Below are positions 5,886 to 21,858 of a DNA stretch of 64,000 bases, piece by piece; position 1 is the stretch's first letter, and every line of letters starts with the position of its first letter. Source of the stretch: an uncultured bacterium (GTDB lineage Bacteria; Patescibacteriota; Minisyncoccia; Phycocordibacterales; CAIZLB01); the NCBI GenBank assembly GCA_903848795.1, contig CAINHC010000021.1, positions 11,309 to 75,308 of the forward strand, given 5' to 3'. The notes beneath the pieces were generated by a model. That model saw only the letters and a program-made list of their open reading frames with translations. It was not told where the DNA came from and searched no databases. A program made the translations under genes and the position numbers.

Positions 5886-6196
5886 AGTGTTAGATAAAAA
5901 TTGTGTTAAATTTATGGATTAATTATAGCACACCACCCTGCACTCGAGGTCAAAAGTTATCCACTTATTTGAGTCTTATTTGAATGGGTTGGCTAACCTC
6001 ATTTATCTTAATTTTCTTTAACAGTACACTCTTTCAAATATTTATCAGCGGATTCTGCATTCATGATTTTTATACTCTTTTGGTATCCAAAGTACTCCAT
6101 AATTAGTTTCTGTTCCTCTGTCACATCTCATGTGAATACGTCTATCGCAGTTTTTGGGGATTTCTATTATAGCTTTGTAGTTCATGTTTTTTCAGC

Positions 6197-7420
6197 CTAT
6201 ATGGATTTAATATTGAAGTAACTCGATGAATTCACCGGTGCGGTATTATCTGTTTTGTTTTTAAAATACAAAGCATATCCATCAGCCTGATGGATATTAG
6301 CAGGAACCTTAAATGTTATATTCTTTGTCTTTGAATCAACAAAACCAAGAAATACAGAGCTATAGTTTTCCGTTAGTGAAGGTGTTATTTTATTTAATTC
6401 ATTATACAAGAAAACATTATAGTCTGCAGATGGCAAATCATAATTACTCCAGGTCATGTTATAAGTTTGTCCAGGTCGCAGTACAGCAAAAGGTCCCATC
6501 GAAAATTTAATCGAAACAACATCCGTTGATGAGGCTGTGGTAGAAGTTGCATTAGTTCCAGATGACGGAGCTGGTGGAACAACATTCACTGGATTAGTTG
6601 TAGCTGGTCCAGCCTTTATCTCAAAATCTCTTGACGATGACACCGGAACATTATTATCAGACTTGTTTTTAAAGTACAAGCCATAATCAGTATTGGGATG
6701 CATATTAGCAGGAATCTTAAATACAAGATTCTTTGTTTTTGCATCAACGTACCCTAGGAATACAGAGCTATAGTTTTCCGTTAGTGAAGGTTTTATTTCA
6801 TTAGATGGACTATATAAGAAAATATTATAATTTGCAGAAGGTGCGTCGTAATTACTCCAAGTTACACTATAAGTCTGTCCTGCCAGTAGTACCTTGGGTA
6901 ACTTTGAATATGTAAGTGGTATAGCGTCTGTTAATGAAGCGGTGGATATTGATGCAGAATCTGTAGATCCGGCTGATGGCGCCTGTAGGAAGACAACATT
7001 TGTGGGAGTGGAAGTCGGAGTAGTTGTTCCAGCTAATGAATAGTTTGTTGAGGTAGCTACCGGACCAGTTGTTGCCTCAGCGCAATCAATTTGCTTAATC
7101 TTCGCTCTTGTTAATGAACCAACATATCCAGTTGGAGAAATATTATTATCCTTCTGGAAAGCCTTAACAGCAATAAGGGTCGCACGGCCAAAGAATCCGG
7201 TTGGTTGCGCAGTTAAATAATTTTTAGTATTTAAAAAATCTTGCAAAATAGAAATGTCAGTAGCCCCACTTGAATCTCTAGTTCCATATTTAAGATTATT
7301 ATTAATGATCGCACAAGCCTGAGAGCCTGTTGGATCAACGTCGCTCTGCTGTGCAAATATTAATGAAGGAGTTAATAAAAGCACCAACACCAAAACACTA
7401 TACAAAATACTTTTTTTCAT
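6197..7420 (-). CDS. Secreted protein with N-terminal peptidoglycan-binding (PG_binding_1) domain and two internal ~95-aa tandem repeats
   Basis: Signal peptide; PG-binding motif ILQDFLNTKNYL...GFFGRATLIAVKAFQ...GYVG; two repeats sharing ...TWSNYD.PSA.YN.FLY...PSLTENYSSVFLG.VD.KTKN..FK.PAN... Confidence 0.6.
   Translation of the reverse strand: MKKSILYSVLVLVLLLTPSLIFAQQSDVDPTGSQACAIINNNLKYGTRDSSGATDISILQDFLNTKNYLTAQPTGFFGRATLIAVKAFQKDNNISPTGYVGSLTRAKIKQIDCAEATTGPVATSTNYSLAGTTTPTSTPTNVVFLQAPSAGSTDSASISTASLTDAIPLTYSKLPKVLLAGQTYSVTWSNYDAPSANYNIFLYSPSNEIKPSLTENYSSVFLGYVDAKTKNLVFKIPANMHPNTDYGLYFKNKSDNNVPVSSSRDFEIKAGPATTNPVNVVPPAPSSGTNATSTTASSTDVVSIKFSMGPFAVLRPGQTYNMTWSNYDLPSADYNVFLYNELNKITPSLTENYSSVFLGFVDSKTKNITFKVPANIHQADGYALYFKNKTDNTAPVNSSSYFNIKSI
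6215..6905. repeat. Intragenic tandem duplication, two ~290-nt copies at ~80% nucleotide identity
   Basis: Near-identical 45-nt stretches share a common core (...atcaac...aatacagagctatagttttccgttagtgaagg...) at 6345-6390 and 6746-6790; they encode the two protein repeats. Confidence 0.7.
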
Positions 7421-7448
7421 GAATTTTATAAATTTAATTCTTAATGGA

Positions 7449-8036
7449 TTAATTATACAACACCATCTCCGTTATTTCCAACATCTCTCCATCTGACCCC
7501 TTAAATCTTTCATCAAAGGTCTTTTTACCAGTTTCAACAAAACCTTGTTTTTTATAAAAGCCCACCCCTCGGGAGTTAAGGGAAAATACATCTAAATACG
7601 TATCTTTGTTTTTATCCAACAAACCGTGTGCTTTATCATACAATTCTTTAGCAAGCCCTTGACCCTTGAATTCTGGCATGACATACAAAGCCTCTATTGT
7701 ATTTTTATCTTCATGTTTTTCAGCAAAACAACATCCGACAACTTTTTCTTCATCTTTCCCATCGTTGTCATTAGTCATTTTTGCGACCATAAGAATATTA
7801 TCATCCGTAAAATTAGCAATGCCTTTTTCCAACCCCTCGGCTGCCTTTTGTGCTTTTTCTGGAGGAAAATGATTATTTATCTCCTCCTCCGACCAACCGC
7901 AAAGTTTGTACATCCCTTTGGATGATTCAATTGTTAATGATTGGATACCATAGGCGTCGGAAGGGATAGCTTTTGATATTTTGACGTTGTTCATTTTATA
8001 TCTATTTATTAAGCGCATTCCTTGTTGCTGGACCAA
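7449..8036 (-). CDS. GNAT-family N-acetyltransferase
   Basis: Acetyl-CoA-binding region VMPEFKGQGLAKELYDKA...RGVGFYKKQGFVETG. The start overlaps the upstream gene, so the true start is probably an internal Met. Confidence 0.6.
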   Translation of the reverse strand: MVQQQGMRLINRYKMNNVKISKAIPSDAYGIQSLTIESSKGMYKLCGWSEEEINNHFPPEKAQKAAEGLEKGIANFTDDNILMVAKMTNDNDGKDEEKVVGCCFAEKHEDKNTIEALYVMPEFKGQGLAKELYDKAHGLLDKNKDTYLDVFSLNSRGVGFYKKQGFVETGKKTFDERFKGSDGEMLEITEMVLYN

Positions 8037-9255
8037 GCGCTCCTGTTTGTGTAAGCTTCTTCGCCTTTTGGAATTTCTTTACTGCGGTTTCAGTAAGTGG
8101 ACCAAACTTTCCATTAATAGGGCCGGTATAAAAATCTAGCTTCTTAAGTGTAGTTTGCAACTCAGTAACTTCCTTGCCAGTTGAACCACTCTTAATTGAA
8201 GTTGAGAATTTATATTTGGTTGCAGATACGGTTGTATTGGATGATTCCACTGATGTATTAACTACGGGATTTGCGACAACAGTGTTAGGAGTAGAAACTA
8301 CAGCAGGTGTGGGTACAGGAGTTGAAACCTGAGAAATATTATTTTGATCTAAAATTAAACTCATCTGTGCCGTTCTTCCATTAAAGTCATTCAACGCCAA
8401 AACTACTGGAATTGTTGATCCTTCATTCCCTGTCACAATATAACTTGAAGTATAAGGACTACTACCAGAAACACCAATTCTCTTTCCAGCAAAAGAAGCC
8501 CACGCAGTATTCACTTGATTTGGCTGATTTGCGCTGAAGCTAAGGGAGATGGTCGAACCAGGACTTAAAAAATTTCCGTTGACATTACTTGATGAAAGAG
8601 TAAATGACGAGAATGATATAGCGGGACTGTTGTTTGTATTTGTTTGATTAACTGCACCTGTATTAACAACTACAATTACTAAGTTTGAACACTGACCATC
8701 ACTTTCACAAACATTAAGAGTTGCACCACCAAAAGCATTAGCGTAGATGTTAACATTATTTCCATTTATTGTTGCTGCTACCACACTACTATTTGAATTA
8801 CTTGCTATACCATAGCCCCCATTGCCATTAAGCCCAATTGATAGACTTTGACCAACATTAAGAGTTATATTGTTTTGACTGAAAATCGGATAACCATTTG
8901 TGGTTGTGTTCGTTGAACATGTACTATTACCACTTGCTGACCATGGAATCATCAGGGATTGCTGATTGTTTACAATGACGTACGCTGTTTGATTACAACC
9001 CGCGAGATTGTGCGTATTTGAACCAAAGGTCGTAGAAAAATTACCATTCTGATCTGTCGAACCAACGTAAGCAGACGATCCTCCAAAATGAAGATCGATG
9101 AGCGAGTTGGGATCTCCATAAACTGTTATCTTGCTCATTGTATTATCCACTGGGCTCAGGGACAATGTTGGAATAACGGATGCATTTGCCTTGGAAGCAA
9201 GCAAAAAAAGTATTCCAAAAAGTACCAATAATAAATTATTTTTAATAGTTTTCAT
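8002..9255 (-). CDS. Secreted Asn/Ser/Thr-rich surface protein with C-terminal peptidoglycan-binding domain
   Basis: Signal peptide MKTIKNNLLLVLFGILFLLASKANA; low-complexity N/S/T-rich body; C-terminal PG_binding_1 motif (TELQTTLKKLDFYTGPINGKFGPLTETAVKKFQ...TGALG). Confidence 0.55.
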   Translation of the reverse strand: MKTIKNNLLLVLFGILFLLASKANASVIPTLSLSPVDNTMSKITVYGDPNSLIDLHFGGSSAYVGSTDQNGNFSTTFGSNTHNLAGCNQTAYVIVNNQQSLMIPWSASGNSTCSTNTTTNGYPIFSQNNITLNVGQSLSIGLNGNGGYGIASNSNSSVVAATINGNNVNIYANAFGGATLNVCESDGQCSNLVIVVVNTGAVNQTNTNNSPAISFSSFTLSSSNVNGNFLSPGSTISLSFSANQPNQVNTAWASFAGKRIGVSGSSPYTSSYIVTGNEGSTIPVVLALNDFNGRTAQMSLILDQNNISQVSTPVPTPAVVSTPNTVVANPVVNTSVESSNTTVSATKYKFSTSIKSGSTGKEVTELQTTLKKLDFYTGPINGKFGPLTETAVKKFQKAKKLTQTGALGPATRNALNK

Positions 9256-9348
9256 TTTGTAGTTGTTGTAGTTGTAATATATTGAATAATGAGTTTATTA
9301 TACCATTATTTAGTGATTATTCTCAATTACTTACTCTACCAATAATAT

Positions 9349-9873
9349 ATGTCTTTCTTCTTAAACAATGCTAGAATAGCATTCATGATATTAACCACGC
9401 ACGCATCTGTAGGAGCAACACTCGCTGTCCTTATACCCAGCAACCCGATTTTGGGTTTTGCAATAGGCTTTGGAAGTCACTTCATTTTAGACTCAATTCC
9501 CCATTGGGATTACAAATTACGAAGTAGTAAAAGAAATAAACAAAAGCCACTTACCAACGACATTATTATCGGAAAAGATTTTTATATTGATTTAATAAAA
9601 ATAGGACTCGATGCACTACTGGGACTTGCGCTTCCTTTATTTTTCCTTGGATTTTTACAACATCAATTAATTCTAATGATTTTATGTGGAGCGATCGGTG
9701 GTATGACTCCAGACTTTTTGCAGTTCGTATATTTTAAATGGAGACACGAACCACTTATTAGTCTACAGAAATTTCATATCTCTATGCATGCAAAAACTGG
9801 TCTGAATGATAAACCACTTCTAGGTGTTTTATGTCAGACAGCGATTATTGTGATTGCATTTGCATTAGTTTAA
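9349..9873 (+). CDS. Integral membrane protein, possibly YdjM/DUF457-like metal-dependent hydrolase
   Basis: 3-4 predicted TM helices; SHFILDSIPHWDY resembles the DUF457 metal-binding motif. Weak call. Confidence 0.3.
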   Translation: MSFFLNNARIAFMILTTHASVGATLAVLIPSNPILGFAIGFGSHFILDSIPHWDYKLRSSKRNKQKPLTNDIIIGKDFYIDLIKIGLDALLGLALPLFFLGFLQHQLILMILCGAIGGMTPDFLQFVYFKWRHEPLISLQKFHISMHAKTGLNDKPLLGVLCQTAIIVIAFALV

Positions 9874-9968
9874 GATTTTAAGTTATTGATTGTGAATTAG
9901 GACACAGATTAAGCTACAATTATGCCGTATTTGCTTGTGGAGACGGGCCAGGGTGTTATACTTCAGAT

Positions 9969-10628
9969 ATGTGTTTTTCAGCTTCTGCCAGTTTTATTGC
10001 AAGCGGCGCCCTTGCCGCTCTTGGCGGGGTTTTTTTTGTTTCTGCAAAGAAGAAAGATAAAGTACTCGCGGTAATTCCGATAATGTTCAGTATTCAACAA
10101 TTTTGTGAAGGAATACAGTGGCTTTATCTAAACTCAGGATCTTCTTCATATATTGCCGGATATTTCTTTTTATTTTTTGCTTTTATCTTGTGGCCTTTAT
10201 ATGTGCCAATCATGGTTTTTCTTTTAGACAAAAGTGAAAGAAAGATATTGGGATGGTTTATACTTGCAGGAGTTGCGGTGGCGATTTATTTTTCTACGAT
10301 ATTTTTATTAGGCCCCTTAGATATACAAAGGGTTAATTCATGCGTAAGTTATAACTTTAGTTTTCCCTTCCAAAACTTTGTTGTTTTAGCATACCTTCTA
10401 GCTATTGTCGGATCCCTATGTATTTCAAGTCTTAATATCTTTCGCTATTTTGGAATAGTCGTTGGATTCTTAGGGCTTGTCTCATGGTTTTTCTTTGCGC
10501 TCACATTCACGTCGGTTTGGTGTTTTTTCGCAGCCATTGTCAGCCTAATGTTTTTCTTTTACGTAAAATACAAACATAAGGTTAATATACTATTGGAGAA
10601 AGTAGATAAGAAAGTTTTGCAAAAATAG
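9969..10628 (+). CDS. Polytopic membrane protein, unknown function
   Basis: Roughly six hydrophobic helices; no recognisable motif. Confidence 0.3.
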   Translation: MCFSASASFIASGALAALGGVFFVSAKKKDKVLAVIPIMFSIQQFCEGIQWLYLNSGSSSYIAGYFFLFFAFILWPLYVPIMVFLLDKSERKILGWFILAGVAVAIYFSTIFLLGPLDIQRVNSCVSYNFSFPFQNFVVLAYLLAIVGSLCISSLNIFRYFGIVVGFLGLVSWFFFALTFTSVWCFFAAIVSLMFFFYVKYKHKVNILLEKVDKKVLQK

Positions 10629-10672
10629 ATTTTGATAATTATTACTATTTCCCCACCTTAATTATTCATCAT

Positions 10673-11572
10673 TCAACCTCTTCTAACAAGCAAAACCTTA
10701 ACAAAATCAAGCCACGTCTTACCCATACTACCTCTAAGCGCCCTAACTAAAGGCATCATCTTATTTGTCAGCGCAGCCTTTGCAAATAAATCAAAAACTT
10801 CTTCTTCTGTTTTGTAAGCTTCAGGTTTTTTTGACGCGACATATTTAATTAGTGAGCCCAATGCCTTAATTTCCTCCGCATGTGAGCTGGGCTCAAAATA
10901 AGGATTTCCAGATTCATCTTGTTTTAATTGATGAAGGCTATTATTACCATTATCTGAATCAACCGAAGGAGGGTCCTCCAAAAGCCACGGTTCTTTTGAA
11001 AGAACGTCTTGGACAAATCTAATTGACAACTCATCCATAACTGCTTCATCTAAGTTCCCAGAAACTTCTTCCAATAAATCACCCCTCTCTCCCCTAGAAA
11101 CTTGTAAGCCAGCTCTTTTAAAACCAACTCTTGAACTCGAATCAACTTCTTCCTCTTTGTAATATTGATATGATGAGAAATGTAACACCTCATGGGCAAC
11201 TATCTGTGCCCTACTCAATCTTGGCTCCAAATCGAGAGCGTCTGGCGAATATATTATGCGTTGATGTTTAGTCTGAAAACCAGCATCACCCTTAAGTTTT
11301 GGTGCGCCATCGGCACTAATGTCTACTGCATGAAAATGGTCCAAAGTAAGTGGTGGCATTTTTCCTCCATACCTCTCTAAAAATGCAGGCATTTCCCTAA
11401 GTACAGATGCAATTATTGTCTCATCTTCTTCAGTTTTTTTTATTTCCCACGGTTCTACTTTTTGATTATCAAAAACGTATTCCAAATAAGCTTTAAAATC
11501 ATCGACCTTGTCGCTTTCGCCAGCGAGCCTATCTACACTACTAGTCTCTTTTAAATTAAATTCCTTATTCAT
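10673..11572 (-). CDS. Acidic hypothetical protein with HExxH motif (putative zinc metallopeptidase-like)
   Basis: IVAHEVLHFSSYQ (HExxH); very acidic; no other recognisable family. Confidence 0.35.
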   Translation of the reverse strand: MNKEFNLKETSSVDRLAGESDKVDDFKAYLEYVFDNQKVEPWEIKKTEEDETIIASVLREMPAFLERYGGKMPPLTLDHFHAVDISADGAPKLKGDAGFQTKHQRIIYSPDALDLEPRLSRAQIVAHEVLHFSSYQYYKEEEVDSSSRVGFKRAGLQVSRGERGDLLEEVSGNLDEAVMDELSIRFVQDVLSKEPWLLEDPPSVDSDNGNNSLHQLKQDESGNPYFEPSSHAEEIKALGSLIKYVASKKPEAYKTEEEVFDLFAKAALTNKMMPLVRALRGSMGKTWLDFVKVLLVRRG

Positions 11573-11590
11573 ATATTCATTATTAAAAAA

Positions 11591-12100
11591 TTATAAAATT
11601 TTCAACTTCATCTCCTCTTTAAACTCGAGTGCGCGTTCAAGCATCCTATCAGCCTGTTTCCCCCAGTGAGCATCACACATTGGAATAAACTCCGATGGGT
11701 CTATAAAATTAATTTCAGTCACCTCCCCTCCTGGGTCTTCTACAAAGTCACCCTCGGGCTCTACCAAGCAAACTACTCGAGCGTGAAAAACTGATTCCCC
11801 AGTTGGTCTAATGGTCTCATGCATTCCCACAAGTCTCATATTTATGATTTTCATATTAGTCTCTTCTGCCACCTCTCTCCTTGCTCCATCTCTAACGCTT
11901 TCTCCGTTTTCTAATCCACCACCCGGAATTCCCCAATGTCCTTCTGATTCACGAACAACTAATAATTTATCATTCATAAAACAATAAGCCCTTACGCTTT
12001 CCATTTTCTTTCCTTCAAAAGCGCTATCATCATCGACATCATTATAAATGATTTCAAATTTTAGTCCGGCTGAGGTTATTATAGTTTTTTTGATTTCCAT
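11591..12100 (-). CDS. NUDIX hydrolase
   Basis: Nudix box GIPGGGLENGESVRDGARREVAEETNM (GX5EX7REUXEEXGU). Confidence 0.75.
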   Translation of the reverse strand: MEIKKTIITSAGLKFEIIYNDVDDDSAFEGKKMESVRAYCFMNDKLLVVRESEGHWGIPGGGLENGESVRDGARREVAEETNMKIINMRLVGMHETIRPTGESVFHARVVCLVEPEGDFVEDPGGEVTEINFIDPSEFIPMCDAHWGKQADRMLERALEFKEEMKLKIL

Positions 12101-12122
12101 ATTATTTTTATTAATTAAAAAA

Positions 12123-13157
12123 TTATTCAGGTTGGCCCTCTGTAATCATCTTCTTTATTTCCTTATCAAAATCAGAATCAATTTTCTGATACTTATTAAA
12201 TTCTTTGTATTCAGAAATGGCTTTTTCGTCTGCATCTAGCTTGGAAATCTTCCCCTTACCATCCAAAACTTCATATTTATTGAATGTCAAAAATTGGTCA
12301 ACACTCTCTGCAAACTCTTTCATTGTAAAAGCATTACTTCTTTCTATTAGTCCCTCAATGTAATCAAAAAAGCCTGTAACTGTTCTTTCCAGTTTTTTAA
12401 TCTCACTTTCTTTTAAATAATTCTTTGCGATGGTAACATCAGATTGTAATACCCTACCTGTAGGAGATTTTTTCCAAGTTGTAAGACCCATATATGGCAA
12501 GGTTGCATCTGCCTTGTCATAAATTATTTCAGGTGCTGTTTTCCCAGTGATTGCAAAGTGAAATTTATTTTGAACCATAGCATAAAATTCATGACTCACA
12601 TCAGAATCTCTATCGTAATCGATACTACACTCGGCAAATATGTCTGTAATTTGTTGGTAAATTCGACGCTCGCTTGTCCTAATGGAGCGAACTCGTTCCA
12701 ACAATTCTCTAAAATAATCAACTCCGAATGTCTTCTCGCCCTGTTTCAAACGATCATCATCAAGCACGAACCCTTTTTTAATAAATTCACGAAGTACTTG
12801 GGTCGCCCAAATACGAAAATATGTGGCCTTTTTGGAGTTTATCCTATAACCTACGGCAATAATGACATCGAGGTTGTAATGTACAATTTCTCTGGAAACC
12901 TCTCTATTAGCCTCATTTTGAACTATTAGGAATTTCCTAATAGTTGCCAATTCCGATAATTCTTGAGATGAATAAATGTTCTTAAGGTGTTCATGTATTG
13001 TAGGGATAGAAACATCAAAAAGCTCTGCGATAAGCTTTTGAGTTAACCAAATTGTTTCCCCTTCTATTCTGACCTCAATTTTAGGCATCCCCGCCTCATT
13101 GCCAAACATGAGAAATTGAGCAATTTTATTATTTTTAGTGACATGATTTTCTTTCAT
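12123..13157 (-). CDS. RhuM-family protein (virulence protein RhuM-like), paralogue 1
   Basis: Family signature YNLDVIIAVGYRINSKKATYFRIWATQVLREFI...TSERRIYQQITDIF; HTH-like N-terminus. Confidence 0.7.
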   Translation of the reverse strand: MKENHVTKNNKIAQFLMFGNEAGMPKIEVRIEGETIWLTQKLIAELFDVSIPTIHEHLKNIYSSQELSELATIRKFLIVQNEANREVSREIVHYNLDVIIAVGYRINSKKATYFRIWATQVLREFIKKGFVLDDDRLKQGEKTFGVDYFRELLERVRSIRTSERRIYQQITDIFAECSIDYDRDSDVSHEFYAMVQNKFHFAITGKTAPEIIYDKADATLPYMGLTTWKKSPTGRVLQSDVTIAKNYLKESEIKKLERTVTGFFDYIEGLIERSNAFTMKEFAESVDQFLTFNKYEVLDGKGKISKLDADEKAISEYKEFNKYQKIDSDFDKEIKKMITEGQPE

Positions 13158-13281
13158 AGTGCAGTCAGTTTATCACAAAAGAGACGATGTCTCTAGCTTA
13201 AGAATTTTTTAGGAATTTTTCTCATGTAACCAACTATTTATCACCAAGATCCTTTTTCTCACCCCACTGCCAACGAGGCTT

Positions 13282-13488
13282 TTATCCTTTTTTGTAGCAT
13301 ATATATATTAATAATCCAGTGAGTAAAAACACTCCCGCTAGACCAAGGATCCAATTATATTTTATAGTTAAGGTTAAGGGGATAAAGATGATAAGCCAGA
13401 TAAGCAAAACAAGCCACCCCTCCCAAGTGGCAGGAGTCCATCCATATCCATAAGTCTTATTAACAAACCATATCTTATTTTTTTTCAT
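13282..13488 (-). CDS. Small two-helix membrane protein
   Basis: 68-aa ORF, almost entirely hydrophobic helices; tightly spaced downstream of the MliC-like gene. Confidence 0.3.
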   Translation of the reverse strand: MKKNKIWFVNKTYGYGWTPATWEGWLVLLIWLIIFIPLTLTIKYNWILGLAGVFLLTGLLIYICYKKG

Positions 13489-13506
13489 CTGAGTTATTTT
13501 GTTAGG

Positions 13507-13878
13507 CTATTTTGTAACGCAATTCTTGTATGTCATATTATCCTGACTACCTTCTGTTACAAAAGCGGTATTTCCCTTATTCCAAAAAACTATCGATTCA
13601 TCATCGTTAGCGTAACGAGCGCCAGAGGCAGAAATTGTCTGAGGCAAGAATAATTCTGGACCACCACTTAGAGTTACGTAAGTTGCGCTTTTATAAAAGA
13701 TGGCGTGTATATTTTTGTTACCCTCGCACTGAAATACGACATCACTAACCTTATTCCCCAATACTTCTTGTACGCCAAGCTTTTTACCTAGAAAAATACC
13801 GAGTCCAAAAACTCCAACGAATAATATAATTGCCACGGTTTGTGAAAGCCGGGTGACTTTGTTCCATTTAATTTTCAT
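13507..13878 (-). CDS. MliC-like (membrane-bound lysozyme inhibitor of C-type lysozyme family) membrane-anchored protein
   Basis: N-terminal signal/anchor; two Cys (FQCEG ... YKNCV) bracketing SASGARYANDDESIVFWNKGNTAFV, matching the MliC SGSGAxY...FWxKG core. Confidence 0.5.
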   Translation of the reverse strand: MKIKWNKVTRLSQTVAIILFVGVFGLGIFLGKKLGVQEVLGNKVSDVVFQCEGNKNIHAIFYKSATYVTLSGGPELFLPQTISASGARYANDDESIVFWNKGNTAFVTEGSQDNMTYKNCVTK

Positions 13879-14044
13879 AATAGAAGTATATCATGCCTAT
13901 ATAAATTCGTACCCCAGCCAGCAGGTGAGCCCGTGTCGATTCCACTAAATCATCTACTGAAACTAGCACTTCATTTTACTTCTCATTCTTGAGCTACCGT
14001 GGATTCCTCGGTAGCTCGATTTAAGCATCATTTTTATAAATAAA

Positions 14045-15784
14045 CTACAGAACATCATTTAAAGATCTAAAACCAAAAGTTTGATATTTATTTTTTAAAA
14101 TCGATGGACCTGGCCATTTACTATCATGCTTTTTTCTTTCTTCTGTGTACCAATCTATAATATTTGTTGGTTTATAACCTTCGGGTATCTTATTCCACGC
14201 GTCCCTAACTTCTTCAGCCCAATCTTCGTATTGCAAGAAAGTCATTTTATACTTTTCCTTTCCGATCAGATCATAAAAGGGTTTTCGTCCAAAATTTGAA
14301 TATTTTTCTTTTAAGCTACCAACCTTAGGCCATGTTTTACTGTGCTCTCTTTTTCTTTCTTGTTCATACCAACTCCACAAACTTCTTGGTCTTTCATTTT
14401 CTGGTAACTGACTCCATGCGCTTACAACTTCCTTTAACCAATCTTCATATGGAAGGTAATCCTTATCTCTATAATTATCTTTACCCACAACATCATTCAC
14501 AGATTTAAAACCATGAATTGAATATCGTTTTTTTAATCTTGAATAACTAGGCCAAGTCTTATTGTGATTAACACGTTTTTCCTCGCCGTACCAATCTTCC
14601 ATATCTCTTTGTTTCTCATGCTCCGGTACCTTACCCCGCGCATCCTTAACTTCTCTGGACCAATCCTCATATGGAAGATAATCCTTATCTAAATGATTTT
14701 CCCTACCAACAGCGGTCGTCAACGTTGTAAACCCATAGGGAGAATATTTTATTTTTAGTATTTTTGAACTTGGCCAGGCATTATGACTCTTTCTTTTTTT
14801 GTTATACCATTTTTCAATATCACCTTTTTTTTCTTTATCTGACGTTTCGTCCCATGCGATTTTAACTTCCTCAGACCAATCTTCATATGGTAAATGCTTT
14901 ACACGTTCTCTTTTAAAAAATTCTGATTGCAAGAACCCCTCAGATAAAGCCTCATCACTTATAGATCCTTCTTGTTCCGGTAGTTCCTCTTCAAGATATA
15001 TCTTAATCTTGTTTCTCCAATTTAATGTTTGTATTATTCGTACCCCAATACCTGGATACATAGCAATGAGTGAATTTTTATCTTGCTTTCCATCAATATC
15101 CAAATCATCGAGTTGGATATGAAGCTCTTGCAATTTTTGTGTATCAAAAACATAACTCGCATTACCTTCTTCATCACATATATATACGGCTCGATTAAGT
15201 TCAGGCACAATAACTCTTACATACGGAGTTTTTCTAATCATCTCATCTTTTACCTCACCCTCTAGTACTAGCATTTGTTCTATATCTCTTATATCAATAT
15301 CAAAGTCTGTTTCAAGAATATACATAAGAGTCAGAAGTCTTGGTATAAACTTCTTCTTTTCAAAAGGAGTATCACCAGGAATTATTCCTTGATTCTCCAA
15401 TTGATCAGGTGGAGTGATGATTGTTTCTGTTTTTTCCTTTGACCCCTGAATGCTTATCTTGACGGCGTCAATCTTTGCTTTAACTTCCTGAATACGATCT
15501 AATATTTCTGAAATGTTTGGTAATTCAAGTTTTTTACATACATCGTCTTCTTGTTCCTGAGTATTTAAAGATAAATTACCTTCAAGATTAGGGTTGGTCT
15601 TATATTCATGAAGCAAGTCATTAATAAGTTCGATTGTATCGCTTACAGCTTCGTCTGCAAAAGATTCTATGTTTTCGACAGTAAGGGGTTTGTATAAAAT
15701 ACCATTTAGTCTTTTAATCGATTCCTCTTTTAAGACTTCAAGAGATTTATATAACTCTACCTGTTTAAATGGATTTTCTAACAT
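14045..15784 (-). CDS. Hypothetical protein with four C-terminal ~65-aa Trp-rich tandem repeats
   Basis: Repeat consensus YEDW.EEV..AW.........WY.EERK.H..TWP....LK.KY..FGF.S.NDV.G, four copies over aa ~300-579; N-terminal 300 aa unassigned. Confidence 0.5.
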   Translation of the reverse strand: MLENPFKQVELYKSLEVLKEESIKRLNGILYKPLTVENIESFADEAVSDTIELINDLLHEYKTNPNLEGNLSLNTQEQEDDVCKKLELPNISEILDRIQEVKAKIDAVKISIQGSKEKTETIITPPDQLENQGIIPGDTPFEKKKFIPRLLTLMYILETDFDIDIRDIEQMLVLEGEVKDEMIRKTPYVRVIVPELNRAVYICDEEGNASYVFDTQKLQELHIQLDDLDIDGKQDKNSLIAMYPGIGVRIIQTLNWRNKIKIYLEEELPEQEGSISDEALSEGFLQSEFFKRERVKHLPYEDWSEEVKIAWDETSDKEKKGDIEKWYNKKRKSHNAWPSSKILKIKYSPYGFTTLTTAVGRENHLDKDYLPYEDWSREVKDARGKVPEHEKQRDMEDWYGEEKRVNHNKTWPSYSRLKKRYSIHGFKSVNDVVGKDNYRDKDYLPYEDWLKEVVSAWSQLPENERPRSLWSWYEQERKREHSKTWPKVGSLKEKYSNFGRKPFYDLIGKEKYKMTFLQYEDWAEEVRDAWNKIPEGYKPTNIIDWYTEERKKHDSKWPGPSILKNKYQTFGFRSLNDVL

Positions 15785-16106
15785 ATTTACATTTTATCCT
15801 AGATATCGGTTATTATAAAGGCTTCTCTATTTTTTCCAACGCCTGTCTCGCTTAAGACAAATCAGCTTTATCTCCGTTTGACAACCTATCGCCGTATTCT
15901 TCTGGCGCCATTATTATCGCAATCTTTTTTCTTAATACCTCTTCATGCCCCCATTCAGATCGTTTTATCATAAGAACATTGCGATTATTTATAGCACAGG
16001 ACTAACGATTTAAAATATTAAGACTGCAAGTTGCTTCAACCCAGTAGGCAACAATCCACCCAAAATACCTCGAAGAATATAGTTTTAAAAAAACAATTAC
16101 AGACAT

Positions 16107-16856
16107 CTACAAAACCCTAAATACATAACCTTCTTTCTTCAATTTAGTTACTATTTCTTCTATTGCAACGTATGTGGCCGGCGCGTTCGGACCACCCAAA
16201 TGCATGATTATTACCGATTTATCATGAACTCCACTCAACACCGCTTTGACAATACCTTTCGAATTCTTATTAAAAGAATCTCCCGACGTTAGCCCAGCGT
16301 CAGAAACAGTTAATCCAATTTTTTGGGCCAATAGATCATCTTGTTGATTATGGCAAAGACCTGGATGGCGGAAATATTTTGGAACAACGCCCGTGAGTGC
16401 TGTAAGAATTCTTTGGGTCTTTTGCATTTCCTCAATTTTATCTTCATCTGTATTGATAATTTTTAACTTATAGCAGGGCGACTCAAAACCAGGGTGATCG
16501 TATGAGTGATTAGCAATTTCAATATCTGGATATTTAGCAATTTCCCTTATCAAATCTGGATATACCTCAGCGAACATTCCAGTAACAAAAATCGTGGAGG
16601 GAATCTTTTCACTTTCTAAATAATTAACAAGATCTTTACTATAATAATCAGAAACTTTTTTCTCATCCAACTTCTTTTTCATAAATGGTGTCATGTCGGC
16701 ATCGAATGTGAGATACACCACTTTTGATTTTGATACCTGAATTTCAGCCTTACTTTCAGCATCGCTTTCTACTTTTTTTGTATGTAAAATATAGAAGACG
16801 ATGCAAATCAAAATCGCCAGAATAACCGCAAAGATGATTTTTCTATTTCTAATCAT
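16107..16856 (-). CDS. Polysaccharide deacetylase (CE4, NodB homology domain), membrane-anchored
   Basis: N-terminal TM; TFDADMTP and NHSYDHP motifs. Confidence 0.65.
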   Translation of the reverse strand: MIRNRKIIFAVILAILICIVFYILHTKKVESDAESKAEIQVSKSKVVYLTFDADMTPFMKKKLDEKKVSDYYSKDLVNYLESEKIPSTIFVTGMFAEVYPDLIREIAKYPDIEIANHSYDHPGFESPCYKLKIINTDEDKIEEMQKTQRILTALTGVVPKYFRHPGLCHNQQDDLLAQKIGLTVSDAGLTSGDSFNKNSKGIVKAVLSGVHDKSVIIMHLGGPNAPATYVAIEEIVTKLKKEGYVFRVL

Positions 16857-16862
16857 ATTAAG

Positions 16863-17885
16863 CTATTTATCAGATACATTCTTAACTTTCTTCTCAATCC
16901 TCTTTTGAACACTCCTGATCGTCTCCAAATAGGCTTCTTCTACTGGTGAAAGAGTTTTTACTTGATACTTCTTGTATTCAGTCTTGGCTTTTTCTAATGC
17001 TTGTTCATGACTTACGTTTCCAGAATCTTTAAGTAAACCCTTCCCATAATTTTCAGTAAATTTATCAAGTTCACTGACCCAGTCCGCCATATACATCTTT
17101 GTATGTTCTTGTGCTTTGATTTCAGCAAGATCAAAGAAGGCTGACACTAAACGATTAAGTCTAAAAAGTTCTTCTTCCGTGAGATAGTTTTTTGCAATCC
17201 CAACTTCAGAAAATACAGGTTGTGCACCAGAAAATGTTGTTAATCCCATAAAGTCCTTTTCTGCATCAGCTCGTGAATGAATTGTTTCAGCAGCAGTGTG
17301 TTTATTGGTAGCATAATGCAATTTATTTTGCACCGTTTTAAAGAACTTAATTGACTCCTGACTGTGGGGATCGTAATCCATACTAGTTGAATACAAATCA
17401 AGCACTTGACGATAGAGCACCTTTTCGCTACTTCTGATATCACGAATACGTTCCAAAAGTTCTTTCCAATAGTTTCCGCCTCCAGTACCTTTGAGGCGTT
17501 CATCGTCCATAGTAAATCCCTTGATAATGTATTCACGAAGCCTGGCTGTTGCCCACTGTCTGAAACGCGTACCCTGTATAGAGCTTACACGATATCCAAC
17601 AGATATGATTACATCGAGGTTATAGTAATTTGTAGGCTTCGTAGAAAAATCGGAAATTCCAATTTTTCTTATAGTACCGTATTCTATGAGCTCTTTTTCC
17701 GAGTAAATATTAAGAATATGTTCATTTATCGTTGAACGACTTTTATTGAATAATTCTGCCATTTGATCAATAGTAAGCCACACCGTCTCATTTTCAAAAC
17801 GGACCTCAAACTTTGGCTGACCATTGTCGCCTTCGTAAATAACTATTTCATTGTTAGATTTGTTAAATTCCATATCTTTTATCAT
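16863..17885 (-). CDS. RhuM-family protein, paralogue 2
   Basis: YNLDVIISVGYRVSSIQGTRFRQWATARLREYI...SSEKVLYRQVLDLY; ~50% identity to paralogues 1 and 3. Confidence 0.7.
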   Translation of the reverse strand: MIKDMEFNKSNNEIVIYEGDNGQPKFEVRFENETVWLTIDQMAELFNKSRSTINEHILNIYSEKELIEYGTIRKIGISDFSTKPTNYYNLDVIISVGYRVSSIQGTRFRQWATARLREYIIKGFTMDDERLKGTGGGNYWKELLERIRDIRSSEKVLYRQVLDLYSTSMDYDPHSQESIKFFKTVQNKLHYATNKHTAAETIHSRADAEKDFMGLTTFSGAQPVFSEVGIAKNYLTEEELFRLNRLVSAFFDLAEIKAQEHTKMYMADWVSELDKFTENYGKGLLKDSGNVSHEQALEKAKTEYKKYQVKTLSPVEEAYLETIRSVQKRIEKKVKNVSDK

Positions 17886-18022
17886 TCATTATCAGCAATC
17901 ATTTTATTAATAAACATCATATCAAATATATATAAAATGAGCTATTATAACTCTATACCACCCTACATAAAATAACCTTGAAAATAGGGCTTAAAAAAAT
18001 CGGCTGTGGTTACCACACGAAG

Positions 18023-19318
18023 TCAGAACCGTTTTGATGCTAGGTAAGAAAAAATAGCTGCAAGCAGACAAACAGCCCCGCCAAGTATAATAGGCATTCG
18101 TGCACCCATAGCGTCCGCAAGCCATCCAGAAAGTGGTCCGCCAACAGCACCCGATCCAGTTAAAAAGATTCCTTGAAGCGCCATCAATCGCCCGTGCATT
18201 TCTTGTTTTGATTCGACTTGAATCATTGTAGTTGTTGCTGTCATGTATAAAATACTAGACGCTCCCACAAGAAAAATAATTGGTATAGCTACTAAGACAC
18301 TAGGAGAAAGTGCGAGCATCAGCATGCTAATACCAAGCATTGTAGCACCAAAGATAATATGATTCATTTTAACTAATCCCCTACGAGCTACAACAAGGGC
18401 ACTTATGACAGCTCCGACACTAAAAACTGAATAAAGAAGTGTAAAGTTACCGATCGTACCATGAAGGCCCCTGGTTACAAACAATGGAAAAGTAGTGGTA
18501 AAATTGTATGCAATCGTTCCAATAAAAGCGAGCATGCCAAAGTTTATCGCCAATAATGGCATAGAAAAAATATATTTTATACCTTCACCTACTCTACCTT
18601 TTGTTTTAGTAATCTCTGACTTTCGATACAGTTCCGAAGGTCGCATCATCATAAGACAAATTAAAACTGCAATATAGGAAATAGCGTCAAAGGTAAAACA
18701 CCAACCAAAGCCCACCGTAATAATTAGAAGCCCCGCAATCGCTGGGCCTAATATTCGTGACAAATTAACATTTGTACTATAAAGCACCACTGCATTTGGA
18801 ATATCATGTTTAGGGACCATTTCGCTTAAGAAAGATAGGCGAAGTGGATTATCCAATGAAAGCACTATTCCTCCAACAAATGCTAATGCATATAATCCAA
18901 AGAGTGGCGGATGTGGCATAAAAGCCAAAACAGCAAGACCTACAGATTGTACCATCTCCAAACTCTGTGTCCAAATAAGCAGACGTCGCTTATCAAATTT
19001 ATCAGCAATAGATCCTGCCCACAATGAAAGAAATAGTATCGGGCCATACTGTAGAGCAGAAACTATTCCAACAGAAAGACCGCTTTCAGTAATTTTCAAA
19101 ACTAGCAAAGTAAGGGCGATTTTTGTTAGCCAATTACCAGTATTTGAAATAGTTTGTCCTATTGTGAATAACCTATAGTTGCGATTCCTGAGCGATATAA
19201 AAGTCTTCAAAAATGTTTCTTTGTATTTAGGTGGTGCAAATAGTTTTTGGTTCATATAAAAAAATGTCAAAAAAACAAGCCTCGAGATCTCCAAGTTATT
19301 CTGGATTATTCCCTTCAA
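18023..19318 (-). CDS. MFS-family transporter
   Basis: 12 predicted TM helices in MFS-typical 6+6 layout, with a characteristic loop (DKFDKRRLL). Confidence 0.6.
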   Translation of the reverse strand: MKGIIQNNLEISRLVFLTFFYMNQKLFAPPKYKETFLKTFISLRNRNYRLFTIGQTISNTGNWLTKIALTLLVLKITESGLSVGIVSALQYGPILFLSLWAGSIADKFDKRRLLIWTQSLEMVQSVGLAVLAFMPHPPLFGLYALAFVGGIVLSLDNPLRLSFLSEMVPKHDIPNAVVLYSTNVNLSRILGPAIAGLLIITVGFGWCFTFDAISYIAVLICLMMMRPSELYRKSEITKTKGRVGEGIKYIFSMPLLAINFGMLAFIGTIAYNFTTTFPLFVTRGLHGTIGNFTLLYSVFSVGAVISALVVARRGLVKMNHIIFGATMLGISMLMLALSPSVLVAIPIIFLVGASSILYMTATTTMIQVESKQEMHGRLMALQGIFLTGSGAVGGPLSGWLADAMGARMPIILGGAVCLLAAIFSYLASKRF

Positions 19319-20315
19319 TTATTTTCTTTACTTCACGGTCAAAATCAGAAATGTAATTTTTGTCCTGTTCTATGCGGTATTTTTCATATTCACCAAGCGC
19401 CAAGGATTCTGCAACCTCATGACTAATCTTACCAGCATTAGTCAATATTTCATACTCACTGAAATTAAGAAAGGCGTTGAGTTTTTCTATCCAATCCGAC
19501 ATTGTCATTGCTTTACCTCGAGATGCTTGCATTTCGGCGTAGTCTAAATACATATTACCAATACGATTTAGATGATCTAACTCATTTTTATTCAAATAAT
19601 TTTTTGCTATAGTCACGTCGCTTGGCATTATTTTACCCTGCGGATATTTACGCCACGAAGTCAAACCTAGTTTTTCCTTTTTACGGCTCACTCTTTCCGC
19701 AACAATTTCTGCCGCCGTTCTACCGGTAATAGCAAAGTGTAGTTTATTTTGCACTGTTGCAAAAAATTCCTTACTTTCAAACGACTTTGGAGAATAGTCA
19801 ATCGCTGTTGCGTATATGTCTGTAATTTTTTGATATATTCTACGTTCACTCGTACGAATATCTTGTATTTCTTCATAAAGCTCATCAAAATACCGTGCGC
19901 TAAAACGAGAGCCATATTTCATACGGTCACTATCCAATGCATAACCTTTTTGGATATAACTTTTCAAAACACCAGTTGCCCATCTTCTAAATTCTGAACC
20001 TCTTTCAGAATTAACCCTATAGCCAACAGCGATGACAAGCTCGAGGCTATAACAGACGACCTTACGAACAACCTCCCTTTTCCCCTCTTTTTGAACTACC
20101 GAGAATTCCTCGGTAGTTGCATTTTTATCAAGCTCGTTCTCATTATGTATGTTCTTAATATGAAGAGACACATTGTCTGTTGAACAATCAAATAATTCTG
20201 ATATTTTTCGTAAGGTTAGCCACATATTATTCACGTCATACAAGACCTCAATATTTACCCTACCATCTTGAGATTGATAAAACGCTATTTCATTGTCTTT
20301 TATCTTTTTTATCAT
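19296..20315 (-). CDS. RhuM-family protein, paralogue 3
   Basis: YSLELVIAVGYRVNSERGSEFRRWATGVLKSYI...TSERRIYQKITDIY. Confidence 0.7.
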   Translation of the reverse strand: MIKKIKDNEIAFYQSQDGRVNIEVLYDVNNMWLTLRKISELFDCSTDNVSLHIKNIHNENELDKNATTEEFSVVQKEGKREVVRKVVCYSLELVIAVGYRVNSERGSEFRRWATGVLKSYIQKGYALDSDRMKYGSRFSARYFDELYEEIQDIRTSERRIYQKITDIYATAIDYSPKSFESKEFFATVQNKLHFAITGRTAAEIVAERVSRKKEKLGLTSWRKYPQGKIMPSDVTIAKNYLNKNELDHLNRIGNMYLDYAEMQASRGKAMTMSDWIEKLNAFLNFSEYEILTNAGKISHEVAESLALGEYEKYRIEQDKNYISDFDREVKKIIEGNNPE

Positions 20316-20425
20316 ATTTATCCTAGTATATCATACTGATAAAAATTGTAATTTTACCCATTATTTATCTTAAAAATATAATGAGGTTGAACCTGTATCT
20401 TTCGTGTTTGAGTTGGCTGGCCCTA

Positions 20426-20463
20426 CCACACAAAATTAGAACCTTTTTGATGCTAGGTAAGAG
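20426..20463 (-). repeat. Remnant duplicate of the MFS gene 3' end (last 8 codons, stop, 3' flank)
   Basis: Minus-strand reading of 20426-20463 encodes ...SYLASKRF* followed by the ccacac flank, matching 18013-18048 at the true MFS 3' end. Confidence 0.6.
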
Positions 20464-20508
20464 TAATTTCTTTCACTTTAGTCCTGAATTTACCAGATGA
20501 TTAAATAT

Positions 20509-20967
20509 TTAAAGTCTAATTATAATATAAAACCACAACATAACCATAACAATAGACAAAATCATTGATATTATAACTTGAATTTTCTGCCACTTAGTTA
20601 GGTTTACGATAGTAAGAGTTTTTTTTGATTTACTTAATAAAATCACACAGGAAATAGCTACAATAATTATTATTGGTACAAAAATTATTAAAGCAATTGC
20701 AGAGCCAACATATACCGATGTAACTGTTAGTATCGTATAAAGGATATTTAAAATTGAAAGGACACAAACAAATATAATCTCTATATCTATTATCTTTCTT
20801 AAATTTTTATTTGCATTCTCATCTACTACAACAGGAACCTTTTGATTTGAATCTCCTTTATATATAAGTTTTTTAATTCCGAGATATAAAATGAATAAAA
20901 TTGGAAGTAAAATTATTAAAAACACAAGGCTGAAGTCTGGGCTTAAATCAGATAAAAAACTAATCAT
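20509..20967 (-). CDS. Small polytopic membrane protein, unknown function
   Basis: Four hydrophobic helices; no motif. Confidence 0.3.
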   Translation of the reverse strand: MISFLSDLSPDFSLVFLIILLPILFILYLGIKKLIYKGDSNQKVPVVVDENANKNLRKIIDIEIIFVCVLSILNILYTILTVTSVYVGSAIALIIFVPIIIIVAISCVILLSKSKKTLTIVNLTKWQKIQVIISMILSIVMVMLWFYIIIRL

Positions 20968-21109
20968 GCGTTAATAATAACATCATCAATAATCAAAGCA
21001 AGCAACATTCTATTGAATAAACTGACCTTATCACAAACCACCATGCAAGAAGTTCTGACGTTCAAGACGCTTATTATAAAAAGGCTTGAAACAAAGGCGG
21101 AAATACCGG

Positions 21110-21181
21110 CTGGGAGACTAGGAATCGAACCTAGATTAAAAGCTTCAAAGGCTTCTGTCCTACCGTTAGACGATCTCCCAA
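21110..21181 (-). tRNA. tRNA-Gln (anticodon UUG)
   Basis: The reverse complement gives a 7-bp acceptor stem GGGAGAT/GTCTCCC, T-loop GGTTCGATTCC, and anticodon loop CTTTGAA (U-UUG-A). No encoded CCA. Confidence 0.8.
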
Positions 21182-21241
21182 TGTTCTATACTTTAATATG
21201 AAATCAACTATAAATCAAGGGCTTTTGACTAACAAAGACTA

Positions 21242-21271
21242 TTGACTTTTCTGAATCAAACTTGCTATAAT
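21242..21271 (+). promoter_or_regulatory. Near-consensus sigma-70-type promoter (TTGACT-18 nt-TATAAT)
   Basis: -35 ttgact at 21242-21247, 18-nt spacer, -10 tataat at 21266-21271. No protein gene lies downstream. Confidence 0.5.
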
Positions 21272-21277
21272 AGCAAC

Positions 21278-21338
21278 ATGTAACCTCTTAAGTGAGGTCC
21301 CGAGGAAGCCACCCGCAAGGGTGGCTTCCGTTTTGTGT
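21278..21338 (+). ncRNA. Candidate ~60-nt small RNA between a strong promoter and an intrinsic terminator
   Basis: Short hairpin cctc-ttaagt-gagg, then an 11-bp perfect stem ggaagccaccc/gggtggcttcc with a GCAA tetraloop (21304-21329), then gttttgtgt. Confidence 0.4.
21304..21338 (+). terminator. Rho-independent terminator
   Basis: Perfect 11-bp GC-rich stem, GNRA loop, U-tract. Confidence 0.65.
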
Positions 21339-21508
21339 CTATCTCGCAAATGAAGCTAAGACTTTTTTAACCCTTCTAAAATCTTCAACACTCATCTCTC
21401 CAATTTTTCTAATAAATCTCTTGCTACTAATAGACCTGATTTGTGACATATTTATTGTTTTTATTACATTTTCATTATTTAAAAATTGAATGAAAAATTT
21501 ACCCTCTT

Positions 21509-21742
21509 TTAATGTACTTGTAGCGGAGCTACTAACAGTCCAAGATTATTAAAGACTTTTATAACCACCACAGGTCTTTCAAATCTATGGTTTTTACCAT
21601 TTATCTCAACACCAATATTTTGACCCAAATTTACCCACCAAATGTCTCTTACTTGGGGATATGAAAAACTCTCAGATTTATGAATACTGATTTTGAGATT
21701 ATTCCATTCGTTAAAAATTTCCGATATTTTATCATCACCCAT
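21509..21742 (-). pseudogene. PemK/MazF-family toxin, C-terminally truncated fragment with no cognate antitoxin
   Basis: RDIWWVNLGQNIGVEINGKNHRFERPVVVI...VAPLQ matches the MazF N-terminal core (GdI..v.f.p..G.E..G.RPalV...vaP.T). 77 aa against ~110 expected; no antitoxin ORF upstream. Confidence 0.45.
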
Positions 21743-21858
21743 ACTCTAATTATGGAATATTGAGTATAAAGAATTTTCTATTTTTTTATAAAGAAAATAC
21801 AAAGATTTTATTGAGCCTCTATTGCCTTAGATGTGCTGGAACCTTAGCTACCCCAACC

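Follow-up and report, generated by a model that had tools for sequence, protein, structure and literature searches.

A tRNA-Gln-bounded flexible region in a lake Paceibacteria bacterium, probably built up at several sites on a conserved scaffold

Salmonella pathogenicity island 3 (SPI-3) at selC is the tRNA-linked island where rhuM was named. To our knowledge, little has been described on the exchange of accessory or defence genes in the candidate phyla radiation (CPR, Patescibacteria), whose members have tiny genomes. Here we analyse a stretch of 64,000 nucleotides (nt), called the window throughout, from a lake bacterium of the Paceibacteria (CPR), in which a flexible region at about 9300-21108 ends at a tRNA-Gln gene and carries three genes of the RhuM family. 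Compared in general terms with SPI-3 at selC, the locus is alike in having accessory genes, RhuM members included, directly 3' of a tRNA, in a content that varies among close relatives, and in being a stepwise mosaic. Unlike SPI-3, however, the window has no integrase, no attachment (att) site or direct repeat and no clear compositional signal, its backbone genes are interleaved with the accessory ones, and its host belongs to the CPR. We propose, at a probability of roughly 70%, that the interval from 21108 down to about 9300 is not a single island but a multi-site flexible region, built on a conserved scaffold. As such it is a known kind of flexible genome region or defence hotspot.

The window has a guanine-plus-cytosine (GC) content of about 36-40% and core genes of the CPR type, and the genes outside the block are of the housekeeping type, such as dnaX, Dus, enolase, iPGM, the type IV pilus genes, TruB and an AddA-like helicase. 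Among named sequences, the closest homologues of dnaX come from metagenome-assembled genomes of Paceibacteria/Parcubacteria. The same locus was retrieved from relatives via dnaX homologues at graded identity combined with a tRNA pattern scan, giving species B (dnaX 94-95% identical in amino acids (aa); loci L003-L006), species C (88%; L007-L010, L108 and L110), species E (91-94%; L016) and species F (94%; L105). Across species B, C, E and F the order of pilus genes, iPGM, enolase, Dus, dnaX and tRNA-Gln is kept. For species B, the closest sister species used, the DNA on the left side was retrieved via homologues of the GH130 and peptidoglycan (PG)-binding proteins and via the 90% cluster of the NUDIX protein (L011-L013, L116 and L117). 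Two further relatives are gene lists: the closely related strain A', a 5,827-bp contig with MliC, NUDIX and HExxH proteins that share 90% or more of their residues with those of the window, and a 48-kb contig of species E. A scan of genome contigs with the dnaX alignment, whose back-translated patterns proved too generic, returned only relatives of at most 60% identity with no usable synteny, and a scan of metagenome contigs with the SBF protein of species B gave no match.

The right-hand end of the region is set by tRNA-Gln(UUG), the sole tRNA of the window, which lies on the minus strand at 21108-21180 according to ARAGORN and at 21110-21180 according to Rfam (64.5 bits). The 3' end of the tRNA is directed into the block, as an initial annotation of this DNA had described; the gene inventory given there is also present in full, with coordinates that are essentially right, and Pfam confirmed its statement that the block holds no housekeeping genes. 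With some 40 nt of upstream sequence included, the tRNA shows 97-99% identity in species B, C, E and F, and the similarity of all four to the window ends 0-1 nt past the tRNA 3' end (window 21108/9). The 3' end of tRNA-Gln is a true, fixed right-hand boundary of the flexible region. Directly adjoining it is a window-specific, AT-rich slot of 615 nt (20494-21107, minus strand), which holds a single gene for an orphan membrane protein of 152 aa, TM152 (20509-20967, minus strand). TM152 has the lowest GC content of the window (0.248), has no match in Pfam, PHROG or PADLOC and no homology to the loci of species B, C and F, and forms a singleton 90% cluster confined to the contigs of this species.

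Comparison of the block with species B revealed a set of conserved elements separated by four window-specific inserts. At the left edge, the genes for the PG-binding surface protein and the adjoining membrane protein TM174 (7990-9873) are conserved in species B with 82% nt identity. The PG-binding protein is 89% identical in aa sequence, and TM174 (9349-9873, plus strand; 174 aa, no family match) shares 87% of its aa with the product of a 162-aa gene of species B at the same position and in the same orientation. The next segment (9874-11602), with the HExxH and DUF6629 genes, is replaced in species B by a 725-aa PG-binding/beta-propeller gene. The segment 11603-12124 is again conserved with 87.5% nt identity, beginning from the ATG of the NUDIX gene or just upstream of it. 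The NUDIX hydrolase (11591-12100, minus strand; Pfam 9e-17) is 89-91% identical in aa to that of species B and is where the tRNA-proximal flexible interval ends on the left; its 90% cluster of 6 members includes the species B protein and thus spans species. Beyond it, 12125-16109 is window-specific and contains the genes for the Trp-repeat protein, the MliC-like protein, the small membrane protein TM68 and RhuM1 as well as the relic of a displaced gene. The CE4 segment (16110-16865) follows with 85.6% nt and 83% aa identity to species B, then the window-specific RhuM3-MFS-RhuM2 segment (16866-20416; MFS, major facilitator superfamily), then a conserved relic of an MFS gene (20417-20493, 83% nt) and finally the TM152 slot. 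TM174, NUDIX, CE4 and the MFS relic have the same order and orientation in species B. All nine window-specific proteins are singletons at 90% clustering, seen only on contigs of this species, and the window-specific proteins had no match in the loci of species B, C and F examined.

The CE4 gene (16107-16856, minus strand; Pfam 2.4e-21) encodes a CE4/Polysacc_deac_1 polysaccharide or peptidoglycan deacetylase, with NCBIfam matches to peptidoglycan deacetylases that all fall below the cut-off. The CE4 gene of species B has the same orientation and also lies upstream of NUDIX. CE4 is therefore a backbone gene and not island cargo. In species B, six other genes stand between CE4 and NUDIX, and the last of them is a 207-aa gene directly upstream of NUDIX. 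A pseudogene relic of this gene was found in the window at 15822-15962 on the minus strand, covering 47 codons with one internal stop (49% identity by tblastn; E 2e-9 against the whole window and 4e-12 locally). Therefore, the segment with the Trp-repeat, MliC, TM68 and RhuM1 genes displaced older content. Right after RhuM1, similarity to species B sets in again, from the NUDIX start codon or slightly upstream of it. In strain A' the gene list reads CE4, DUF6498, MliC, a small open reading frame (ORF), NUDIX and HExxH, with other genes upstream of CE4; the CE4 position is taken by a 249-aa Polysacc_deac_1 (CE4-family) gene, a putative counterpart of the CE4 of the window. RhuM1, RhuM2 and the Trp-repeat gene are missing from these positions in the same list.

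The conserved anchors with separate inserts between them, the 207-aa relic and the gene order of strain A' therefore point to several insertions, deletions and replacements, and not to one tRNA-targeted integration. The synteny comparison that the initial annotation had proposed thus confirmed the tRNA boundary and the window-specific inserts, but the backbone genes are kept in order in species B, and for TM174, NUDIX, CE4 and the MFS relic the finding is of the kind named there as arguing for an ancestral region.

The intact MFS gene encodes an EntS-like transporter of the MFS_3 family (18023-19318, minus strand; Pfam 3.4e-57), with a start at 19255 preferred by gene callers; its NCBIfam EntS-like match is below the curated cut-off. 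This gene is window-specific, and the species B locus has a relic only. The relic of the window (20415-20493, minus strand) consists of the last 8 codons, the stop and about 20 nt, plus about 30 nt upstream, and is a backbone element. The 48 nt at 20415-20462 share 83% of their letters with 18002-18049, and SYLASKRF-stop is encoded in both; over 78 nt the relic is 83% identical to species B L116 1794-1871, where SYLASKEF-stop is encoded. No further copy was found in the window or in the loci of relatives examined. The relic had first been taken for a recent duplication of the 3' end; this, and likewise a target-site duplication of a cassette, was rejected, as the relic is old and stands at this place in species B too. 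An intact MFS gene beside an older relic common to species B implies that the transporter was probably re-acquired.

The position directly 3' of tRNA-Gln was found to be occupied by different islands in the sister species. In species B, the tRNA is followed by the gene for a membrane protein of 600 aa and by that for a large serine recombinase, which is on the opposite strand; after these come a DEAD helicase, one N6/N4 and one C5 methyltransferase and a NOV_C protein. Species C has a KAP NTPase and a large serine recombinase, followed by HsdM, HsdS and an AAA_15 protein, and species F has three small ORFs and a large serine recombinase, followed by HsdM with a MerR helix-turn-helix domain, a DUF4435/AAA_21 protein, HsdS and a HATPase_c protein. 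The recombinase of each of the three species is composed of Resolvase, Recombinase and Zn_ribbon domains, is encoded on the strand opposite to the tRNA at a distance of one to three genes, and has variable cargo around it. Different restriction-modification (RM) or defence sets thus stand directly after the same tRNA at one conserved locus in species B, C and F; therefore, the spot 3' of tRNA-Gln is a hotspot for recombinase-bearing defence islands in the sister species. As in described defence islands and hotspots, one locus carries different defence sets per species (type I RM, methyltransferase/helicase, KAP NTPase and DUF4435/AAA_21), and the window itself has three matches to the PADLOC candidate PDC-S05. 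In contrast to such islands, the window has no validated defence system, and the other cargo is probably envelope-related (CE4, MliC and MFS) or of unassigned function. Only the 615-nt slot with TM152 occupies, in the window, the position of the recombinase islands of the sisters.

The recombinase of species B matches the phage integrase family phrog_95 with an E value of 1.5e-61. It is 55% identical to that of species C and 96% identical in aa to that of species F. Third codon positions of the B and F recombinase genes are 78% identical compared with 66% for dnaX, which suggests that the recombinase was exchanged after the species split. The first ~22 nt after the tRNA are common to B and F, whereas the cargo on either side of the recombinase is not. 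Recombinases close to the tRNA in species B, C and F and the tRNA-proximal match of B and F are shared with integrative elements driven by large serine recombinases. Unlike these elements, the window has no recombinase. In 9300-21200 no recombinase or integrase was detected by Pfam, and tblastn with the recombinases of B, C and F returned nothing at E<=1; the non-coding gaps of the block are too short to conceal one. Probes of 14-23 nt from the tRNA 3' end with up to 3-4 mismatches matched only the tRNA itself in the window and in the loci of relatives, and no suitable candidate for an att-type direct repeat was present among the window repeats. The initial annotation had reported neither an integrase nor a direct repeat of the tRNA 3' end, which these searches bear out; the partial repeat of tRNA-Gln that it had suggested to look for is absent from the window.

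Three other contigs carry information on the flexible region. In a 4-kb contig of the Joint Genome Institute (L016), the core genes of species E are about 82% identical in nt to those of species B, and from the tRNA onward L016 3164-4046 matches the start of the species B island (L003 11808-12690) at 99.8% identity. L016 may represent a very recent transfer between species or an assembler switch inside the shared tRNA. It was not accepted as proof of transfer, as a switch in the tRNA region of about 115 nt, 97-99% identical between species, is equally possible. The 48-kb contig of species E was rejected as a clean empty site: a NUDIX gene, possibly orthologous, lies about 130 nt past the expected tRNA position, the downstream genes are unlike those of the window species (A) and species B, and the evidence is a gene list only. 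In a more distant relative (L014 1-10000; PG-binding protein 72% identical), the DNA upstream of the orthologue of the surface-protein gene encodes a ParB-methyltransferase, a terminase-like GpA_ATPase, a ParA-like CbiA protein, FUR, YibE_F and a two-component system. These genes resemble those of a prophage or plasmid and point to a further state of the flexible region.

All three RhuM proteins are full-length members of their family. RhuM1 (12123-13157, minus strand; PF13310 2.9e-104, PDC-S05 4.5e-148) ends 22 nt before the NUDIX start codon and has no counterpart between MliC and NUDIX in strain A'. RhuM2 (16863-17885, minus strand; PF13310 4.4e-102, PDC-S05 1.5e-146) ends 6 nt before CE4 and is not present next to CE4 in species B or strain A'. 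RhuM3 (19296-20315, minus strand; PF13310 1.6e-102, PDC-S05 4.6e-138) is window-specific. The PF13310 matches score 348, 341 and 343 bits against a cut-off of 33.7, and PDC-S05 is listed by PADLOC as a candidate single-gene defence system. Pairwise identity among the three proteins is 39-46%, with 46% between RhuM3 and RhuM1 and 39% between RhuM3 and RhuM2; a recent duplication is therefore not their origin. The distance from the end of each RhuM gene to the unrelated gene that follows (MFS, CE4 or NUDIX) is 6-40 nt, and no shared recombination motif was found upstream of the three genes. PADLOC reported for the block only PDC-S05 for the three RhuM proteins and a weak PDC-S07 match for NUDIX, and detected no RM, CRISPR, Abi or other known defence system in the window. 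No solved structure matched RhuM by sequence. A search of phage databases matched only homologues of RhuM, which occur on Streptococcus satellite phages, and gave no prophage signal. One paper (PMC3710099) proposes that RhuM is a toxin domain within RM operons. The three proteins agree with the RhuM family (PF13310/PDC-S05) in their full-length, high-scoring matches, but the window has no RM operon, and three deep paralogues stand within 9 kb. Judged by sequence, the three RhuM proteins are candidate toxin-type or defence-type modules.

A mechanism can be outlined from these comparisons. The scaffold in common with species B consists of tRNA-Gln, the old MFS relic, CE4, NUDIX, and TM174 beside the PG-binding protein, and the gaps between these anchors would have been refilled independently in each lineage. 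The gap at the tRNA carries serine-recombinase islands with RM or defence genes in the sisters and only TM152 in the window species. The inserts were probably acquired horizontally from related Paceibacteria of similar base composition, by recombinase integration at the tRNA slot and by homologous recombination across the conserved anchors elsewhere. The block now appears to be immobile and fixed in the species. A more far-reaching version is conceivable but doubtful: the site 3' of tRNA-Gln would be the attachment site of a family of serine-recombinase-driven defence islands circulating among co-occurring lake Paceibacteria, with L016 as a transfer caught happening, the TM152 slot as the scar of such an element and the RhuM genes as single-gene cassettes, each gained on its own and inserted just 5' of a resident gene.

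The strongest rival is differential loss only, in which a large ancestral accessory region lost different parts in each lineage, a different subset was kept, and no transfer took place. Pure differential loss is a weaker alternative to the multi-site region, and we consider it unlikely. Relics of ancestral genes (the MFS 3' end and the 207-aa gene), a genome-like composition and codon usage and the fixation of the block within the species agree with it. However, the ancestor would have had to hold the summed contents of the lineages, well over 40 kb, in a small CPR genome. The nine window-specific proteins have no cluster-mate of at least 90% identity outside the species and no match in the loci of B, C and F, and three RhuM genes at 39-46% identity are unlikely as local leftovers. 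In addition, the recombinases of B and F are closer at synonymous sites than dnaX, and the intact MFS gene beside the older relic implies re-acquisition.

Several observations weigh against the multi-site region itself. Some segments could also be accounted for by the loss of different parts of a larger ancestral region. The GC content at third codon positions (GC3) of the window-specific genes is the same as in the rest of the window (p=0.58), and their codon-usage distance falls within the range of core subsets, 30% of which are equal or larger. As GC3 and codon usage are indistinct, it is from distribution alone that a foreign origin is inferred. No recombinase, att repeat or other mobility gene is present in the window, which leaves the route of arrival putative for every insert. 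The recombinase island (L003) and the backbone (L116) of species B are not joined in DNA, although both lie on one 199.5-kb contig, and the comparisons with strain A' and the 48-kb contig of species E depend on 90% clusters or Pfam labels. Finally, the RhuM genes stand here without accompanying RM genes, and their function is a predicted one. As to overall composition, the window-specific genes have a GC content of 0.347 compared with 0.381 in the rest of the window (Mann-Whitney p=0.01), which is partly due to TM152. A compositional comparison proposed in the initial annotation thus gave a slightly lower overall GC but no distinction in codon usage or GC3. With a composition so close to that of the window, transfer would therefore be either old or from compositionally similar relatives.

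Much less probable still is a single island of about 12 kb that integrated at tRNA-Gln via an integrase and whose integrase and att sites then decayed. This was the interpretation of the initial annotation, and the part of it that stands is an accessory, mostly species-specific region with a true tRNA boundary. The tRNA 3' end facing the block, the sharp homology boundary there, the recombinase-bearing islands of the sisters at the exact point, the lack of housekeeping genes and the slightly lower GC are all in its favour; yet the block does not behave as one unit, since species B keeps TM174, NUDIX, CE4 and the MFS relic in order and orientation (83-91% aa identity) and the window-specific DNA is split into four segments. 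The 207-aa relic and the order of strain A' record separate events, no partial tRNA repeat is present, and codon usage is not distinct.

An assembly or binning artefact, with foreign DNA chimerically joined at the tRNA, is excluded: one contig (L002) is chimeric at window 21026 and sixteen contig ends cluster in 14.3-21.1 kb, but the block is present at 100% identity in 18-20 contigs that derive from different samples and assemblers and cross both junctions. These assemblies comprise MEGAHIT k141 contigs, SPAdes-type scaffolds, Logan contigs and metagenome-assembled genomes of NCBI, and many assemblies of lake metagenomes contain the identical DNA (with record names like BUCK21-1 and GCA_9039948xx). 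Within the species, the block is fixed. L002 (ERZ18626171 scaffold_5549) had been considered as an empty site; over 3.4 kb, down to 21026, its sequence agrees with the window at 100% identity. From there, in the middle of a gene, it continues with Bacteroidota-type sequence, namely a truncated C-terminus of ribosomal protein S1, RNase Z, CdaA, GlnA-III and a Por_Secre_tail protein, and it is almost certainly a chimeric CPR/Bacteroidota assembly. The divergent last 52 nt of a contig from an NCBI metagenome-assembled genome (L017 14863-14914; GCA_903994855.1 CAJEYZ010000002.1) were dismissed as Illumina adapter (AGATCGGAAGAGCACACGTCTGAACTCCAGTCAC...). The sixteen contig ends belong to assemblies of 100% identity, and five of them lie at 20850-21138 beside the tRNA; the clustering may reflect strain heterogeneity or a drop in coverage in the AT-rich TM152 gene with its 25% GC.

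Among the other cargo, the largest gene encodes a Trp-repeat protein of 579 aa (14045-15784, minus strand), which has a conserved N-terminal domain of about 270 aa followed by four Trp-rich repeats of about 73 aa (residues 298-579). The protein had been listed as an orphan, but at E<=1e-3 it has 553 matching representative clusters, which for the most part align along the N-terminal domain and vary in their C-termini; it belongs to a widespread uncharacterised family. No match was found in Pfam, PHROG, PADLOC or NCBIfam or to PDB sequences. An AlphaFold2 model of residues 1-290 from an alignment of 60 sequences reached a predicted local distance difference test (pLDDT) score of 93 and a predicted template modelling (pTM) score of 0.89, and the single-sequence model of the whole 579-aa protein had a pLDDT of 37. 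Fold searches of the N-terminal model against PDB and viral models gave no convincing match, only generic helical-bundle ones. The N-terminal domain (window 14915-15784) has the invariant residues E79, R149, R184, Y188, C203, E205, N208, K233 and G247 and includes the motif CDEEGNASYVF. A variant of 631 aa in L112 was rejected as a scaffold-gap artefact. In strain A' the gene list shows a DUF6498 gene at the position of the Trp-repeat gene.

The MliC-like protein of the lysozyme-inhibitor family (13507-13878, minus strand; Pfam 1.8e-14) has an N-terminal hydrophobic segment and is present in strain A'; it was not found in the loci of species B examined. Next to it, the ORF list contains TM68 (13282-13488, minus strand), a small membrane protein of 68 aa with no family match, and strain A' has an 84-aa gene at the same position. 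Envelope- or lysozyme-related roles are predicted from sequence for CE4, MliC and the EntS-like MFS protein. The HExxH protein (10673-11572, minus strand) has 299 aa, an HEVLH motif and a SprT-like match only below threshold, and is also present in strain A'. The membrane protein gene beside it (9969-10628, plus strand) belongs to DUF6629 (Pfam 1.2e-25).

The stretches flanking the block vary as well. On the right, the spacer from dnaX to tRNA-Gln (window 21201-21858) itself differs between species. The gene described initially as a MazF fragment, which lies outside the flexible interval, is an essentially full-length but frameshifted MazF/PemK toxin pseudogene (21342-21745, minus strand) with a weak Pfam PemK match. 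An intact PemK of 134 aa in species C matches two frames of the window at 77% and 49%. In this spacer, species C has the intact PemK gene and a 143-aa ORF, and species B has unrelated ORFs of 99-140 aa. On the left (window 6008-6184; genes 6197-9255), species B has extra genes for SBF, an S41 peptidase, an M3 peptidase, a pyrophosphatase and others between the conserved surface-protein, GNAT and cupin genes, and of the pyrophosphatase region the window retains no more than short stretches of DNA (94% and 80% identity). Therefore, the neighbouring 'core' stretch is also rich in insertions and deletions.

The locus carries a caution for the reading of other genomes, as an accessory block next to a tRNA need not be one island, and backbone genes can be interleaved with lineage-specific inserts. 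Its practical value is modest and is that of a mapped hotspot for the population genomics of lake Paceibacteria. The three divergent RhuM/PDC-S05 genes are candidates for toxicity or defence, and the N-terminal domain of the Trp-repeat protein represents a widespread uncharacterised family with a confidently predicted, unmatched fold. For the Paceibacteria, the locus is a concrete and precisely bounded case of a region that is anchored at tRNA-Gln and has been remodelled in every sister species sampled.

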